A stretch of DNA of 64,000 nt. Source: an uncultured Gammaproteobacteria bacterium (GTDB lineage: Bacteria > Patescibacteriota > Microgenomatia > UBA10105). The stretch is from contig CAYPMW010000002.1 of the NCBI GenBank assembly GCA_964412165.1, positions 1,324 to 65,323 of the forward strand, given 5' to 3'. The notes beneath the pieces are model-generated. The model had not been told where the DNA came from. It worked only from the letters and a program-made list of their open reading frames with translations, and searched no databases. Position 1 is the stretch's first letter, and every line of letters begins with the position of its first letter. Of the stretch, positions 36,387 through 38,076 are shown piece by piece. The translations under genes and the position numbers were made by a program.

Positions 36387-36416
36387 GTTGAAATACGGAG
36401 GTTATTATTCTACACT
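36387..36416 (+). promoter_or_regulatory. promoter TTGAAA-N17-TACACT for the blaI-like gene; the -10 lies inside the operator
   Basis: Hexamers seen directly; predicted transcript start ~5 nt before the ATG (leaderless-like). Confidence 0.4.
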
Positions 36417-36426
36417 CTGTAGTAGA
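36408..36426 (+). promoter_or_regulatory. BlaI/MecI/CopY-type operator box (TACA-N3-TGTA dyad) ending 2 nt before the blaI-like ATG
   Basis: TTCTACACTCTGTAGTAGA; same core cTACAcTsTGTAGTAG as 37814-37832. Confidence 0.55.
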
Positions 36427-36427
36427 T

Positions 36428-36808
36428 ATGAAGCCAAAAGCATTGAGTGAGCTTGAGCAGGAAGTTATGAACATTGTCTGGGAATACGGGGACTGCTCGG
36501 TGCGTGACGTGCTGACGAGAATAAATAATAAGAAAAAACTCGCTTATACTACGATTGCCACCATTCTTCAGCGGCTTTGCGACAAAGGAATAGTTGCGCG
36601 AACAAATAAAGACATTGTCATTTATTACTCCCCGAAACTCTCCAAAGAAAACTACAGTAAAAGTATGGCCCGCTCGATCATTTCTAAGTTCTTCAATTCA
36701 TTTGGTGATGCGGCAATTGCTTCATTTGCTGAGTCAATTGAGAAATTACCCAGGTCAACAAAAGAGTACTTTTTGAAATTATTATCTGAAAAACATGAGA
36801 CTAAATAA
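36428..36808 (+). CDS. BlaI/MecI/CopY-family transcriptional repressor
   Basis: LSELEQEVMNIVWEYGDCSVRDVLTRIN...YTTIATILQRLCDKGIVAR aligns with the BlaI winged-helix N-terminus; no C-terminal CxC metal motif. Confidence 0.85.
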   Translation: MKPKALSELEQEVMNIVWEYGDCSVRDVLTRINNKKKLAYTTIATILQRLCDKGIVARTNKDIVIYYSPKLSKENYSKSMARSIISKFFNSFGDAAIASFAESIEKLPRSTKEYFLKLLSEKHETK

Positions 36809-37790
36809 ATATCTCATTACATTCACAGGATTATTTACCGCTGTAAGCTTAATGTTGTTTGTCGTCCTCCAAAAGTACTTTCTCCTTCTTCTCCATCACA
36901 CGATTTATTATTGCAAGGAAATGGCTGAAACATTTGCTGTTCGTTTCCCCGATGGCACTGGAATTATCGTATTTACGATCCTTTCAATAATTTTGGTTTC
37001 CACTCTCATTAAATTGATCTCCACTGGACTAAAGATTTATCGGTTCAGAAAGGGATTACAACAAGACGTTACAGGTAACGGTAGGCTCTCAATATTGTTA
37101 GAGAAACTTGATTTGCAGTCAAAAGTTAAAGTAGTAGATTCGTCACGGATATTTGCGGTCTGTTTTGGTATTCTGAACCCTATAATATATCTGTCTACCA
37201 AGCTTATTAAGATGTTAACTAAGGACGAACTGGAAGTTGTGCTTCGCCACGAGAAGTATCATTTGAAAAATAGAGACACTATCACGCTTATGCTCGCTGT
37301 CATCTTTGAATCTTTTTTACCCTTCGTCCCGATTATTTCTGATCTCATTCGGCAATATAAAACAGATCGGGAGTTATCAGCTGATCGCGAGGCAGGCCTT
37401 GTTTACAATGGAGACAAGCTTTTATCGACAGTCCTGACTAAACTTCTAGTCTGTGAGCCACAGTATGCTTTCCTGCCTGCTCCAGCTATTACAGACGCCC
37501 AGACGCTGGAAGCAAGGATTTGTAGACTCACTAGTGGAGCATATCATCATAAATTATTTGGGATTAAAAATAGCCTGATTAGTGTTATCTCGGTAGGATT
37601 TCTTTTATTTCTCGCGTTTACTCCGGTTAACGCAGTTGAACTGCATTCAGACAATCACGACGTGATGATAGTTTGTGCTGCGACTCAATCGTGTGACATA
37701 GCTTGCAAAAAATCGGAAGTAATCATGGAACAAACATCTTCCCATTTGTATACGTCAAAAACTCACGCTTCATATATGTCTTCTAATTAG
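36795..37790 (+). CDS. BlaR1/MecR1-like M56 peptidase membrane protein lacking a penicillin-sensor domain
   Basis: 4 TM, HEKYHLKNRD (HExxH) zinc site, then a short extracytoplasmic Cys/His tail (CAATQSCDIACKK, HSDNHD) after the last TM; overlaps the blaI-like stop. Confidence 0.75.
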   Translation: MRLNKYLITFTGLFTAVSLMLFVVLQKYFLLLLHHTIYYCKEMAETFAVRFPDGTGIIVFTILSIILVSTLIKLISTGLKIYRFRKGLQQDVTGNGRLSILLEKLDLQSKVKVVDSSRIFAVCFGILNPIIYLSTKLIKMLTKDELEVVLRHEKYHLKNRDTITLMLAVIFESFLPFVPIISDLIRQYKTDRELSADREAGLVYNGDKLLSTVLTKLLVCEPQYAFLPAPAITDAQTLEARICRLTSGAYHHKLFGIKNSLISVISVGFLLFLAFTPVNAVELHSDNHDVMIVCAATQSCDIACKKSEVIMEQTSSHLYTSKTHASYMSSN

Positions 37791-37793
37791 CCC

Positions 37794-37823
37794 TTGACAA
37801 ATAAAAGAATAATCTACTACACT
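37794..37823 (+). promoter_or_regulatory. promoter TTGACA-N18-TACACT for the 37834 gene; the -10 lies inside the operator
   Basis: Consensus -35; predicted transcript start ~4 nt before the ATG. Confidence 0.45.
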
Positions 37824-37832
37824 GTGTAGTAG
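37814..37832 (+). promoter_or_regulatory. second BlaI/CopY-type operator box (CTACTACAC-T-GTGTAGTAG), perfect 9-bp dyad ending 1 nt before the ATG
   Basis: Perfect palindrome containing TACA-N3-TGTA. Confidence 0.55.
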
Positions 37833-37833
37833 T

Positions 37834-38076
37834 ATGGCAGAAGAGAAATCTAAAAGATCGCTTACTCCTGTCCTCGTCGTTCTTCTGGTAGTTGCCTCCT
37901 TTTTAATCGGTTCCCTTTATACAAAAGTTCAGGTATTAGAAAAAGGAGTTGAGGAAGGGGTTACGGGTACTCCGGGAACGATAATTCTCACTGCTAGTGG
38001 CAATACACAACTGATTCCGGGTGCCCTCCCATTTGAACAAGTAAAACCGATGATTGACGCAGCATTAAAGAAATAA
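37834..38076 (+). CDS. small membrane-anchored protein, first gene of the operator-controlled downstream operon
   Basis: 80 aa, TM LTPVLVVLLVVASFLIGSL. Confidence 0.45.
   Translation: MAEEKSKRSLTPVLVVLLVVASFLIGSLYTKVQVLEKGVEEGVTGTPGTIILTASGNTQLIPGALPFEQVKPMIDAALKK

Follow-up and report, generated by a model that had tools for sequence, protein, structure and literature searches.

The DNA analysed here, a window of 64 kb, comes from an uncultured, ultra-small bacterium, placed in the CPR on the basis of named homologues, and contains a repressor gene and a protease gene that lie inside a copper-resistance gene cluster. The first gene of the pair (36428-36808, plus strand, as are the protease gene and the operon that follows it) encodes a winged-helix repressor of the BlaI/MecI/CopY family with 126 aa. 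Its Pfam match to Penicillinase_R (PF03965; 3.6e-26, 92.2 bits against a cut-off of 22.6) and the alignment of residues 5-115 to the BlaI/MecI structures 1SD4, 1SD6 and 1OKR and to M. tuberculosis 2G9W bear out the family identity that a sequence-only reading had proposed for this gene. The alignment with residues 8-108 of S. aureus BlaI is free of gaps, and therefore Phe100 of the repressor pairs with Phe102 of BlaI. The scissile Asn-Phe bond of S. aureus BlaI, which we take to be N101-F102 (the same position is cited in the PetR paper), lies in the dimerisation domain. By alignment, the presumed cleavage site of the repressor is Ser99-Phe100 (36722-36727), with Ser as P1 residue and not Asn as in BlaI. 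S99, F100, L107 and P108 are invariant in 44/44 repressor orthologues and A101 is invariant or nearly so.

The second gene (36795-37790) overlaps the first by 14 nt, an arrangement that is present in essentially every related locus, and encodes a BlaR1-type M56 zinc metalloprotease of 331 aa. The HExxH membrane protease that had been read at this position is recovered by Pfam (Peptidase_M56, PF05569; 3.1e-15, 56.5 bits against a cut-off of 31), by a protease profile that matches S. aureus BlaR1 at 1e-8, and by Foldseek, for which BlaR1 (8exq, 8exp) is the best fold match with a probability of 1.00 to an AF2 model with a good core and a pLDDT of 73.5. The HEKYH motif (residues 152-156, 37248-37262) and the third zinc ligand, Glu193, are both invariant among orthologues. 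The beta-lactam sensor domain is indeed missing. The match to BlaR1 is confined to residues 104-323, which comprise TM3, the protease domain and TM4; the blaR1_generic model reaches a score of 50.5 (cut-off 400) and aligns at model positions 121-254 only; and the reading frame stops 53 residues past the last transmembrane helix at a TAA (37790), 4 nt ahead of the next promoter. The 42 orthologues are 284-345 aa long. Relatives at E<=1e-30 form 281 clusters at 50% identity, and the 150 representatives listed are all <=352 aa; no penicillin-binding domain was found in the 42 orthologues or in these 150 listed representatives.

Two short regions of the protease are predicted, by homology with the aligned TM3 and TM4 of BlaR1, to face the outside. 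One is the first outside loop with a conserved Tyr-Tyr-Cys40 (Cys codon 36912-36914). The other is the C-terminal Cys/His tail, which was noted before and is conserved in orthologues, P-V-x-A-x-E-x-H-x4-D-x4-C-x5-C-x3-C (residues 277-304, 37623-37706; the window protein contains ELHSDNHDVMIVCAATQSCDIACKK). Among 42 orthologues C40 and C294 are conserved to 98%, E282, H284 and D289 to 93% and C300 and C304 to 83-86%, and Met43 in the loop to only 38%. Exactly three tail cysteines occur in 73/107 full-length representatives; in distant members the E-x-H-D part of the tail erodes and the pattern of one loop and three tail cysteines persists. Loop (37-52) and tail (280-331) have AF2 pLDDT values below 50, and a metal site can therefore not be modelled.

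Two near-identical dyads flank the pair, each ending about 1-2 nt ahead of an ATG, and their positions were verified. Putative operator 1, ATTCTACACTCTGTAGTAG (36407-36425), has the core CTACA-N3-TGTAG and an imperfect left arm; putative operator 2, CTACTACACTGTGTAGTAG (37814-37832), is a perfect 8+3+8 palindrome. The TTGA[AC]A-N17/18-TACACT promoters described in the sequence-only reading are both present, with the -10 inside the dyad. The presumably autoregulated promoter of the pair is TTGAAA-17-TACACT (36388-36416, 9/12 matches), with the -35 at 36388-36393, the -10 at 36411-36416 and the repressor ATG at 36428; its -35 is weak in relatives too (TTGAAA, TTGTAA, TTGCAA). The promoter of the downstream regulon is TTGACA-18-TACACT (37794-37823, 10/12 matches), with a consensus -35 at 37794-37799, the -10 at 37818-37823 and the following ATG at 37834. 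The exact 16-mer CTACACTNTGTAGTAG is common to both dyads and has no third copy in the window. The motif TACANNNTGTA occurs in the 64 kb only at these two places, a count which by itself is not unusual, since 25/100 shuffles reach at least two occurrences. The decisive test of the predicted operators is their conservation at the same two positions: among 58 related loci, a dyad lies directly 3' of the protease gene in 43 and directly 5' of the repressor gene in 29. The site after the protease gene has the consensus CTACTACA[C/A]TNTGTAGTAG, stands 16-84 nt past the stop codon and is at least 95% conserved at 14/19 positions; a perfect TTGACA at 17-18 nt accompanies it in 37/43 loci. In nearly all of the 29 loci with a site before the repressor gene, the ATG lies -2 to +5 nt from the site end. 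Position 10 of the dyad, the last T of the -10, is T in 42/43 and 29/29 sites, respectively. As judged from these alignments, the fusion of predicted operator and promoter is conserved base for base.

A search of the window for further dyads, with up to three mismatches or with N2 spacing, gave nothing relevant; the single N2-spaced match, at 63773, does not exceed chance. A terminator scan flagged dyad 2 on the minus strand only, and as the plus strand has no T-run behind it, we rejected the reading of this dyad as an intrinsic terminator. An Rfam scan of the whole window returned one tRNA only and no RNA element in the region of the pair. The half-sites here, TACA and TGTA, are separated by three nucleotides, whereas published operators of CopY, BlaI and MecI are TACA-N2-TGTA (PMC7253601). 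Hence, binding of the repressor is not guaranteed by analogy. The literature gave nothing conclusive on N3-spaced BlaI operators, and we therefore make no claim that this spacing is unprecedented in the family. Both promoters had also been called leaderless. A very short leader stands, although with the -10 lying 10-11 nt from the ATG a leader of 3-5 nt is predicted, which is not strictly leaderless. Moreover, a Shine-Dalgarno-like motif precedes only 5/53 genes of this genome and a -10-like hexamer lies 3-12 nt before the start in 30/53, so that short or absent leaders are a genome-wide trait and not special to this module.

Operator 2 is followed by four genes. The first, an 80-aa ORF (37834-38076) previously described as a small membrane protein, turned out to be a remnant of a DsbA-like thioredoxin-fold protein: in tblastn the intact homologue of locus L013, which has a Thioredoxin_4/DSBA match, aligns to it at residues 1-45 and 219-260 only, and an in-frame internal deletion has taken out the CPFC domain. 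The second (38083-38611) is a CxxC membrane protein, as had been said, with the motif CAAC, yet the gene is frameshifted near 38400. The 164-aa ORF as listed stops at 38577, and the genuine C-terminal part is encoded in the frame ending at 38611; this part (38402-38581, 55% identity, with CAAC) is in another frame than the N-terminal part, and the intact 170-aa homologue is found at 13585-14097 of L013. The 80-aa and 164-aa window ORFs have no family match of their own. The third and fourth genes carry the identities originally given to them. One encodes a DUF3105 protein of 214 aa with an N-terminal membrane anchor (38608-39252; PF11303, 6.2e-21), homologues of which (68-78% identity) adjoin the pair in related loci. 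The other encodes a CueO/CopA-like multicopper oxidase of 526 aa with a Met/Gly-rich insert (39314-40894; Cu-oxidase, Cu-oxidase_2 and Cu-oxidase_3; CueO model 8.9e-48), and in L011, L012, L013 and L014 its gene has a dyad copy of its own directly upstream. With two of its four genes decayed, the regulon copy in the window may have lost part of its function. Further downstream, an HMA-DsbD/copZ/copA operon is preceded by a different conserved operator, AAATCTTA-N13-TAAGATTT, and is probably outside the control of the BlaI-like repressor. Its CopA carries the motifs CPC, YN and MxxSS, which presumably mark Cu(I)/Ag(I) pumps. A 103-aa ORF at 47266-47577 was considered as a CsoR that might regulate this copA operon, but its Trns_repr_metal match is weak and below the cut-off (E=0.012); no homologue of it stands beside copA in the related loci, and one weak match lies elsewhere in L016.

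Nearly all named members of the 58 related loci belong to CPR/Patescibacteria. Genes for CopA, HMA-DsbD_2-cupredoxin, CopZ, multicopper oxidase or DUF3105 lie within 10 kb of the pair in 28/30 orthologous loci that have 8 kb or more of flank, and a copper-gene context is found in 2/10 of the more distant pairs; these counts were made by hand from the locus search rows, with loci classified by loop motif or orthology, and as related loci share phylogeny they are not independent events. The association of a strict regular expression for the tail with copper context is only borderline (Fisher p=0.024), because the expression misses variant tails. The link of the pair to copper and redox genes, proposed for the window alone, is thus kept across lineages and is not a local accident. 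Since dozens of related genomes repeat this combination of the gene pair, the 19-bp site and neighbours with copper and thiol-redox functions, we most likely deal with an undescribed copper or thiol-stress switch, the general type of which is already known. In the literature on Patescibacteria we found no description of such a BlaI/M56 system; papers on Haloferax and Patescibacteria touch BlaI or copper incidentally.

We propose, with a probability of roughly 0.6, that the two genes form a proteolytic module of the BlaI/BlaR1 type, which governs a regulon for copper and thiol-redox defence outside the cytoplasm. A dimer of the BlaI-like protein would bind the 19-bp dyad CTACTACA-CTN-TGTAGTAG and thereby cover the -10 and the start region of two promoters. 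The weak promoter with the imperfect operator would serve the pair itself, and the promoter of consensus strength with the perfect operator would serve the operon of the DsbA-like remnant, the CxxC membrane protein, the DUF3105 protein and the multicopper oxidase. The catalytic HExxH domain of the protease is expected in the cytoplasm, with the Tyr-Tyr-Cys loop and the E-x-H-x4-D-x4-C-x5-C-x3-C tail on the outside in place of the penicillin-binding domain of BlaR1. Copper may be sensed at the outside Cys, His, Asp and Glu residues, either by direct binding or by Cys oxidation. Once active, the protease would cleave the dimerisation domain of the repressor between Ser99 and Phe100, upon which the repressor would leave the DNA and both promoters could fire. 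Binding, cleavage, stimulus and sensing site are here inferred. A copper or thiol stimulus is suggested by the conserved synteny, the missing CopY metal site, the invariant Ser-Phe and the precedent of PetR/PetP. A tentative extension, which we hold somewhat short of even odds, is that the protease represents a novel type of copper sensor outside the cytoplasm, in which the loop Cys and the short tail together make up a site for copper, or a thiol site sensitive to copper, that takes the place of the penicillin-binding domain. The module might then be the main envelope copper regulator in a large part of CPR/Patescibacteria (Microgenomates, WWE3), with a second regulator running the cytoplasmic copZ/copA efflux operon through its own operator.

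A serious rival, though on balance an unlikely one, is that the module senses thiol-disulfide stress in the envelope and not copper, so that oxidised, reduced or mis-paired outside cysteines trigger cleavage of the repressor. Across the wider family the most constant neighbour is a DsbA-like or thioredoxin-fold gene and not a copper gene, hence the ancestral signal may be thiol-redox stress. Such a gene comes first after the operator in most loci, among them loci without copper genes; it is a Thioredoxin_4/DSBA gene in L016 and L041, L048, L049, L052 and L055 carry genes of the thioredoxin-like or DsbD_TM type, and DsbD_2-type proteins also belong to the regulon. The one-plus-three cysteine pattern is more widely conserved than Glu, His and Asp of the tail, and the four outside cysteines could be merely two structural disulfides, which would speak against the tail as a copper site. 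On this explanation, an ancestral thiol-redox regulon would have taken up copper genes in a single subfamily, as disulfide stress is a consequence of copper. However, Glu282, His284 and Asp289 would be superfluous for a pure disulfide switch and are nevertheless retained in the orthologous subfamily, where copper-specific genes accompany nearly all pairs and extra operators stand directly before multicopper oxidase genes. Furthermore, PetR/PetP responds to copper, and we know of no other sensor-less BlaR-type system that has been characterised and has a defined stimulus.

It appears improbable that the repressor itself senses copper in the manner of CopY, with the M56 protein being accessory, for example in clearing released repressor, or unrelated to signalling. 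CopY and the repressor are members of one Pfam family, the half-sites are similar to the cop box, and CopY_TcrY (TIGR02698) is the best NCBIfam match of the repressor, yet its 50.3 bits stay far under the equivalog cut-off of 121.95. A C-terminal CxCx4CxC or CxC metal motif is absent from the repressor and all 44 orthologues; Cys23 is the sole conserved Cys (93%), the window protein has no Cys beyond residue 51, and the C-terminal half is devoid of conserved Cys, His and Met residues. The overlapping protease gene in essentially every locus and the invariant Phe aligned to the BlaI cleavage site also argue against this reading. Least credible of all, and very improbable indeed, is an ordinary BlaI/BlaR system for beta-lactam or cell-wall stress that merely sits beside copper genes. 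Both proteins are members of the respective families, and sensor-less BlaR homologues are sometimes presumed to be beta-lactam-responsive, e.g., in C. thermocellum; the penicillin-binding domain, however, is missing throughout the orthologues and listed representatives. A metallo-beta-lactamase-superfamily gene lies 4 kb upstream (31763-32632), but on the opposite strand and without a dyad, and its Lactamase_B fold is shared by hydrolases of a very broad superfamily. Neither a beta-lactamase nor a PBP gene stands under the operator in the window, in L013 or in eight more distant loci. Instead, tblastn with the window proteins found copper and redox genes adjoining the pair in the other loci, in dozens of loci the genes behind the operator have copper or redox functions, and this regulon is conserved.

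As CPR/Patescibacteria are for the most part uncultured, their gene regulation has hardly been studied, and the locus offers a fully specified and compact circuit, which consists of a repressor of 126 aa, a protease of 331 aa and an operator of 19 bp within a near-consensus promoter. If the Cys/His tail is the sensor, a BlaR1-type protease would be switched by a peptide of about 30 residues and not by an antibiotic-binding domain of 250 residues. To our knowledge, copper-responsive BlaI/BlaR systems are so far known only from cyanobacterial PetR/PetP, and the pair would extend this idea to copper detoxification and to a different superphylum. Such metagenomic pairs should not be annotated as regulators of beta-lactam resistance. 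The circuit could be rebuilt in E. coli, and the combination of a tight operator with a strong promoter could be put to use as a small inducible switch.

Pairs of BlaI and BlaR without a role in beta-lactam response and without the sensor domain are widespread. M. tuberculosis Rv1846c/Rv1845c is a sensor-less pair with a regulon that includes ATP synthase and others. P. aeruginosa PvmSR is a BlaI/BlaR pair acting on virulence genes (bioRxiv 10.64898/2026.08.03.742534). Unlike for the CPR pair, neither a copper or redox context nor a Cys/His tail is described for these systems. With BlaI/BlaR1 and MecI/MecR1 (1SD4, 1OKR, 8EXP-8EXT) the CPR pair shares the repressor fold and the aligned Asn/Ser-Phe site, the core of TM3, zinc-protease domain and TM4 with HExxH and a downstream Glu, and the predicted autoregulation through a promoter-overlapping operator. 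In contrast to BlaR1 and MecR1, the CPR protease lacks the extracellular penicillin-binding domain, which is class D beta-lactamase-like, and has 56 instead of about 100 residues before the helix aligned to BlaR1 TM3; its regulon contains no beta-lactamase or PBP2a target gene. The order of the genes is repressor then protease, whereas the staphylococcal order is blaR1-blaI, with the protease first. CopY, CopR and TcrY of Firmicutes are likewise Penicillinase_R proteins with KACA/TGTM half-sites, copper-resistance targets and autoregulation. Their cop box, TACANNTGTA or in extended form RNYKACANNTGTMRNY (PMC7253601), has a spacer of 2 nt and not of 3 nt as in the CPR site. CopY itself senses Cu(I) via a C-terminal CxCx4CxC that the CPR repressor does not have, works without a partner protease and runs copA/copZ, while the CPR copZ/copA operon has another conserved operator.

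Closest to the CPR pair is PetR/PetP of Synechocystis sp. PCC 6803 (slr0240/slr0241), a BlaI/CopY-family factor with a BlaR-type M48/M56 membrane protease (García-Cañas et al., bioRxiv 10.1101/2020.07.31.226407; commentary PMC7896320). Degradation of PetR is copper-dependent and PetP is a sensor-less M48/M56 protease (bioRxiv 10.1101/2020.07.31.226407), so that a copper-responsive, sensor-less BlaI/BlaR pair is already known from cyanobacteria. Compared by description, both systems combine a BlaI-family factor that lacks the CopY Cys motif and keeps the Phe of the BlaI cleavage site with an adjacent overlapping gene for an M56/M48 membrane protease without a C-terminal beta-lactam-binding domain; the copper signal is demonstrated for PetRP and inferred for the CPR pair. 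The proposed ligands of PetP are two Met in the TM2-TM3 loop, in place of which the CPR protease has a loop Cys and the Cys/His tail. The PetR site is GACN5GTC and the predicted CPR operator is TACA-N3-TGTA within CTACTACA-N3-TGTAGTAG. PetR also activates, of which the CPR pair gives no sign. PetRP switches between plastocyanin and cytochrome c6 (petE/petJ) in the service of cofactor economy, whereas the CPR pair, with DsbA-like, DUF3105 and multicopper oxidase genes as its predicted targets and not petE/petJ, would serve copper detoxification and envelope thiol-redox defence.

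The repressor gene (36428-36808) encodes a 126-aa protein of the BlaI/MecI/CopY family (Pfam Penicillinase_R, 3.6e-26, 92 bits; cut-off 22.6) and overlaps the following M56 protease gene by 14 nt, as the sequence-only reading had described. The protein aligns without gaps with residues 8-108 of S. aureus BlaI, which places its Phe100 at the position of BlaI Phe102. S. aureus BlaI is cleaved between Asn101 and Phe102. The same cut is also stated in the study of PetR, a cyanobacterial BlaI-family factor (bioRxiv 10.1101/2020.07.31.226407). Ser99, Phe100, Leu107 and Pro108 are invariant among 44 repressor orthologues, and Ala101 and Ser103 nearly so. 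These orthologues contain neither a CxCx4CxC nor a CxC motif, their sole conserved cysteine being Cys23 in the DNA-binding domain, and the CopY_TcrY model scores 50 on the repressor against a cut-off of 122. Judged from these sequence features, the repressor is of BlaI type, probably protease-controlled, and no CopY; although it belongs to the BlaI/MecI/CopY family, it differs from CopY in both the Cys motif and the model score.

The protease (36795-37790; 331 aa) is an M56 peptidase (Peptidase_M56, 3.1e-15, 56.5 bits; cut-off 31) whose HEKYH motif spans residues 152-156. The absence of a beta-lactam sensor domain, claimed earlier, is borne out in several ways. In the best NCBIfam match, blaR1_generic, the alignment is confined to positions 121-254 of the 585 in the model, and the score is 50 where the cut-off is 400; a profile built from 27 homologues aligns with S. 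aureus BlaR1 at residues 104-323 alone (TM3, protease domain, TM4); and since the reading frame closes at 37790, with a promoter from 37794 on, no gene model can supply a penicillin-binding domain. The best fold matches of an AF2 model (pLDDT 73.5) are BlaR1 cryo-EM structures. Thus, the window protease shares the M56 peptidase with BlaR1 and MecR1, but not the sensor domain that defines them, and the Cys/His tail at its end (ELHSDNHDVMIVCAATQSCDIACKK) reads as had been noted.

Across 42 protease orthologues the catalytic residues (HExxH, Glu193, Ala196, Asp197) are conserved, as are two segments predicted to lie outside. The first, directly after the first membrane helix, is Tyr38-Tyr39-Cys40, with the cysteine 98% conserved. 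The second is the tail, with the motif Pro277-Val-x-Ala280-x-Glu282-x-His284-x4-Asp289-x4-Cys294-x5-Cys300-x3-Cys304; here conservation is 93% for the acidic and His residues, 98% for Cys294 and 83-86% for the CxxxC pair. The predicted topology, with a cytoplasmic catalytic domain and both conserved Cys segments outside, follows from the BlaR1 alignment, in which TM3 is matched by helix 57-80 and TM4 by the final helix, and hydropathy and charge distribution are consistent with it. These are the places that the L1 loop and the sensor domain occupy in BlaR1. In the wider protease family, exactly three tail cysteines are present in 73 of 107 full-length representatives, and the Glu, His and Asp of the tail fade in more distant members.

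Two near-identical dyads had been reported right before the ATGs of blaI and of the first gene of the downstream operon, and both were recovered: site 1 (ATTCTACACTCTGTAGTAG, 36407-36425; next ATG 36428) and site 2 (CTACTACACTGTGTAGTAG, a perfect 8+3+8 palindrome, 37814-37832; next ATG 37834). In the 64-kb window TACANNNTGTA occurs only at these sites, a count that taken alone is within chance, and the exact 16-mer CTACACTNTGTAGTAG is common to both dyads and found nowhere else in the window. A promoter scan likewise returned the proposed promoters with the -10 inside the dyad, TTGAAA-17-TACACT (36388-36416) for blaI-M56 and TTGACA-18-TACACT (37794-37823) for the regulon. Among related loci, CTACTACA[C/A]TNTGTAGTAG lies 16-84 nt 3' of the protease stop in 43, and in 37 of these 43 a perfect TTGACA stands 17-18 nt before TACA[C/A]T. 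Directly before the repressor ATG the dyad core is present in 29 loci, with a degenerate outer left arm and a weaker -35. The central T of the dyad is the final base of the -10 hexamer and is kept in 42 of the 43 post-M56 sites and in all 29 pre-blaI sites. Extra dyads precede multicopper oxidase (MCO) genes in four related loci (L011-L014) and other genes in other loci. The design conserved across these loci gives the regulon a strong promoter whose operator is perfect, and leaves autoregulation to a weak promoter whose operator is imperfect. The published operator of CopY, BlaI and MecI is TACA-N2-TGTA, extended RNYKACANNTGTMRNY (PMC7253601), whereas the window dyads have a spacer of 3 nt. 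In three loci (L032 4342, L033 3664, L035 3233) a BlaI-type dyad starts just 2 nt past TTGACA. Behind it comes another motif, a G/C tract (TATATCCCTGCTGGGG-like) resembling CsoR operators, and one promoter may be under dual control there.

The -10 to ATG distance at the module promoters is 10-11 nt, and transcription beginning some 7 nt past the -10 would give a leader of 3-5 nt, matching the earlier estimate. A Shine-Dalgarno-like motif precedes only 5 of the 53 window genes, and 30 of the 53 have a -10-like hexamer 3-12 nt before the start, compared with 24% for random positions; strong hexamers are mostly found at 5-8 nt. Together, this suggests that leaderless or near-leaderless expression is widespread and the norm in the source genome. 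In many genes a TATAAT-like hexamer stands 5-8 nt ahead of the start codon, for example at 3882, 18285, 29909, 34383, 55739, 58970 and 61288. Relative to the end of the operator, the blaI ATG falls at -2 to +5 nt in nearly all loci. Such tight spacing holds for the regulon promoter in only about one third of loci; the remaining ones have a regulon leader of about 20 nt without a Shine-Dalgarno-like motif.

Protease homologues are 33-83% identical, the named ones coming from Candidatus Gottesmanbacteria and Woesebacteria. The protease profile retrieved 281 clusters (50% identity) at E<=1e-30, and the 150 listed are all of at most 352 aa, i.e. sensor-less. For the repressor, at least 393 clusters (90% identity) were found at E<=1e-10, from Gottesman-, Woese-, Levybacteria and Patescibacteria, annotated only as 'BlaI/MecI/CopY family transcriptional regulator'. 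Scanning one genome per species gave 58 loci, in most of which the pair adjoins copper and redox genes according to tblastn with the window proteins: CopA-type ATPases, HMA-DsbD_2-cupredoxin, CopZ-like proteins, MCOs, DUF3105 and the small first gene. Among loci whose flank measures 8 kb or more, one or more of these genes is present in 28 of 30 orthologous loci (Tyr-Tyr-Cys loop type) against 2 of 10 more distant pairs; the loci are mutually related, so these figures are counts and not independent events. Many MAG records with a locus of this CPR type bear the title 'uncultured Gammaproteobacteria' or 'Pseudomonadales', while individual records are named 'Sulfotelmatobacter' or 'Udaeobacter' (L001, L006, L007, L010, L013, L018, L020, L024-L029, L032-L035 and others). 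Records with specific candidate-phylum names are all Patescibacteria, and the other titles are probably placeholder or wrong taxonomy.

In the window, the copper island spans about 34022 to 48100. It begins with an HMBD heavy-metal-binding protein (34022-34270, minus), a MarR (34383-34832), an RnfD-like membrane protein (34838-35662) and a DUF2933-like small membrane peptide (35973-36179, minus; ending ...CPLLHIIMMRGGDHKH), the last of which is kept near the pair in at least eight loci. Behind the module, the operon 37834-40894 comprises an 80-aa ORF, a 164-aa ORF, DUF3105 and a CueO/CopA-like multicopper oxidase. The last two had been named correctly, but comparison with the intact locus L013 revises the small membrane protein and the CxxC protein. 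The 80-aa gene (37834-38076) is an in-frame internal-deletion remnant of a DsbA-like protein of about 260 aa (L013 11072-11860; Thioredoxin_4/DSBA, CPFC) that has lost the CPFC site and retains just its N-terminal membrane anchor and roughly 40 residues at the C-terminal end. The gene of the 164-aa ORF (38083-38611) is frameshifted near 38400 relative to L013 13585-14097, its conserved C-terminal part with a CAAC motif being encoded in the frame ending at 38611. Either a pseudogene or an assembly error underlies the shift. Its protein family has no match in Pfam or NCBIfam. The following 158-aa methyltransferase ORF (40899-41375) matches only the N-terminal SAM-binding third of methyltransferase models and is probably a truncated gene, a further sign of island decay. 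Then come HMA-DsbD_2-2x cupredoxin (41633-43492), a CopZ-like protein (43503-43709), CopA (43718-47269, plus; 1183 aa; CPC, YN and MxxSS motifs) and a DUF1573 protein (47574-48092). CopA is unusually long: it contains two HMA domains as well as two insertions, and extends by about 200 aa at its C-terminus.

No BlaI-type dyad was found in the window for the HMA-DsbD/copZ/copA operon. It is preceded by a different, operator-like inverted repeat, AAATCTTA-N13-TAAGATTT (41538-41566), identical in the related loci L009 (7265-7293) and L023 (16791-16819), which flanks a -35-like TTGATA (TTGACT in L023); the related form TCTTCATAAAATCTTAATA occurs in L005, L007, L008, L011 and L030. This points to a different regulator for the efflux operon, and locally BlaI control probably extends no further than blaI-M56 and the operon 37834-40894. 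Between this element and the ATG at 41633, CCCCCTCTT-ATA-AAGAGGGGG (41595-41615) forms a perfect dyad or hairpin rich in G+C that L009 and L023 lack at the equivalent place; a CsoR-type site is one possibility, an RNA hairpin another. Directly after copA, a 103-aa ORF (47266-47577) matches Trns_repr_metal (CsoR/RcnR) weakly (E=0.012, below cut-off), with H-x3-C present and the first Cys missing. L013 has a clear CsoR-family gene (14781-15062; 4.8e-22) within its copper cluster; thus some relatives have two copper regulators.

The best-supported model, by analogy with BlaI/BlaR1 and PetR/PetP, is proteolytic derepression. The repressor on the dyads would block the -10 and start region; an outside signal, read by the Cys/His/acidic loop and tail, would activate the cytoplasmic metalloprotease; the repressor would then be cut at Ser99-Phe100 and both promoters would fire. 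We consider repressor-operator control very likely and assign cleavage of the repressor by the M56 protease a probability of about 0.75, and that loop and tail form the sensing site has an even chance. For the physiological stimulus, copper is a reasonably probable candidate, favoured by the conserved copper-specific neighbours, the extra operators before MCO genes, the ligand-type tail residues other than cysteine and the precedent of PetR and its protease PetP, in which PetR degradation requires PetP and copper (bioRxiv 10.1101/2020.07.31.226407). A serious rival is that the protease senses thiol-redox state instead, for a DsbA-like gene is the most constant first regulon gene. Moreover, six distant pairs (L016, L041, L048, L049, L052, L055) have the same operator type (CTACTACA-N3-TGTAGTAG) with different Cys-rich tails, and there thioredoxin-fold, DsbD_TM and DUF1573 genes, not copper genes, follow M56. 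These pairs suggest that an envelope thiol-redox regulon was the ancestral state. The copper and the redox reading could be connected through thiol oxidation catalysed by copper.

A literature search for this repressor-protease system in Patescibacteria returned no paper describing it, and public annotations of the repressor and protease homologues are generic. The principle is already known; no description was found of the lineage, the regulon, the operator geometry compared with the published N2 spacer, or the putative Cys/His sensor tail. The architecture matches that of PetR/PetP from Synechocystis, with a sensor-less protease and a repressor without metal motif, but PetR has a different operator, GACN5GTC, and neither the targets nor the candidate ligands are the same.
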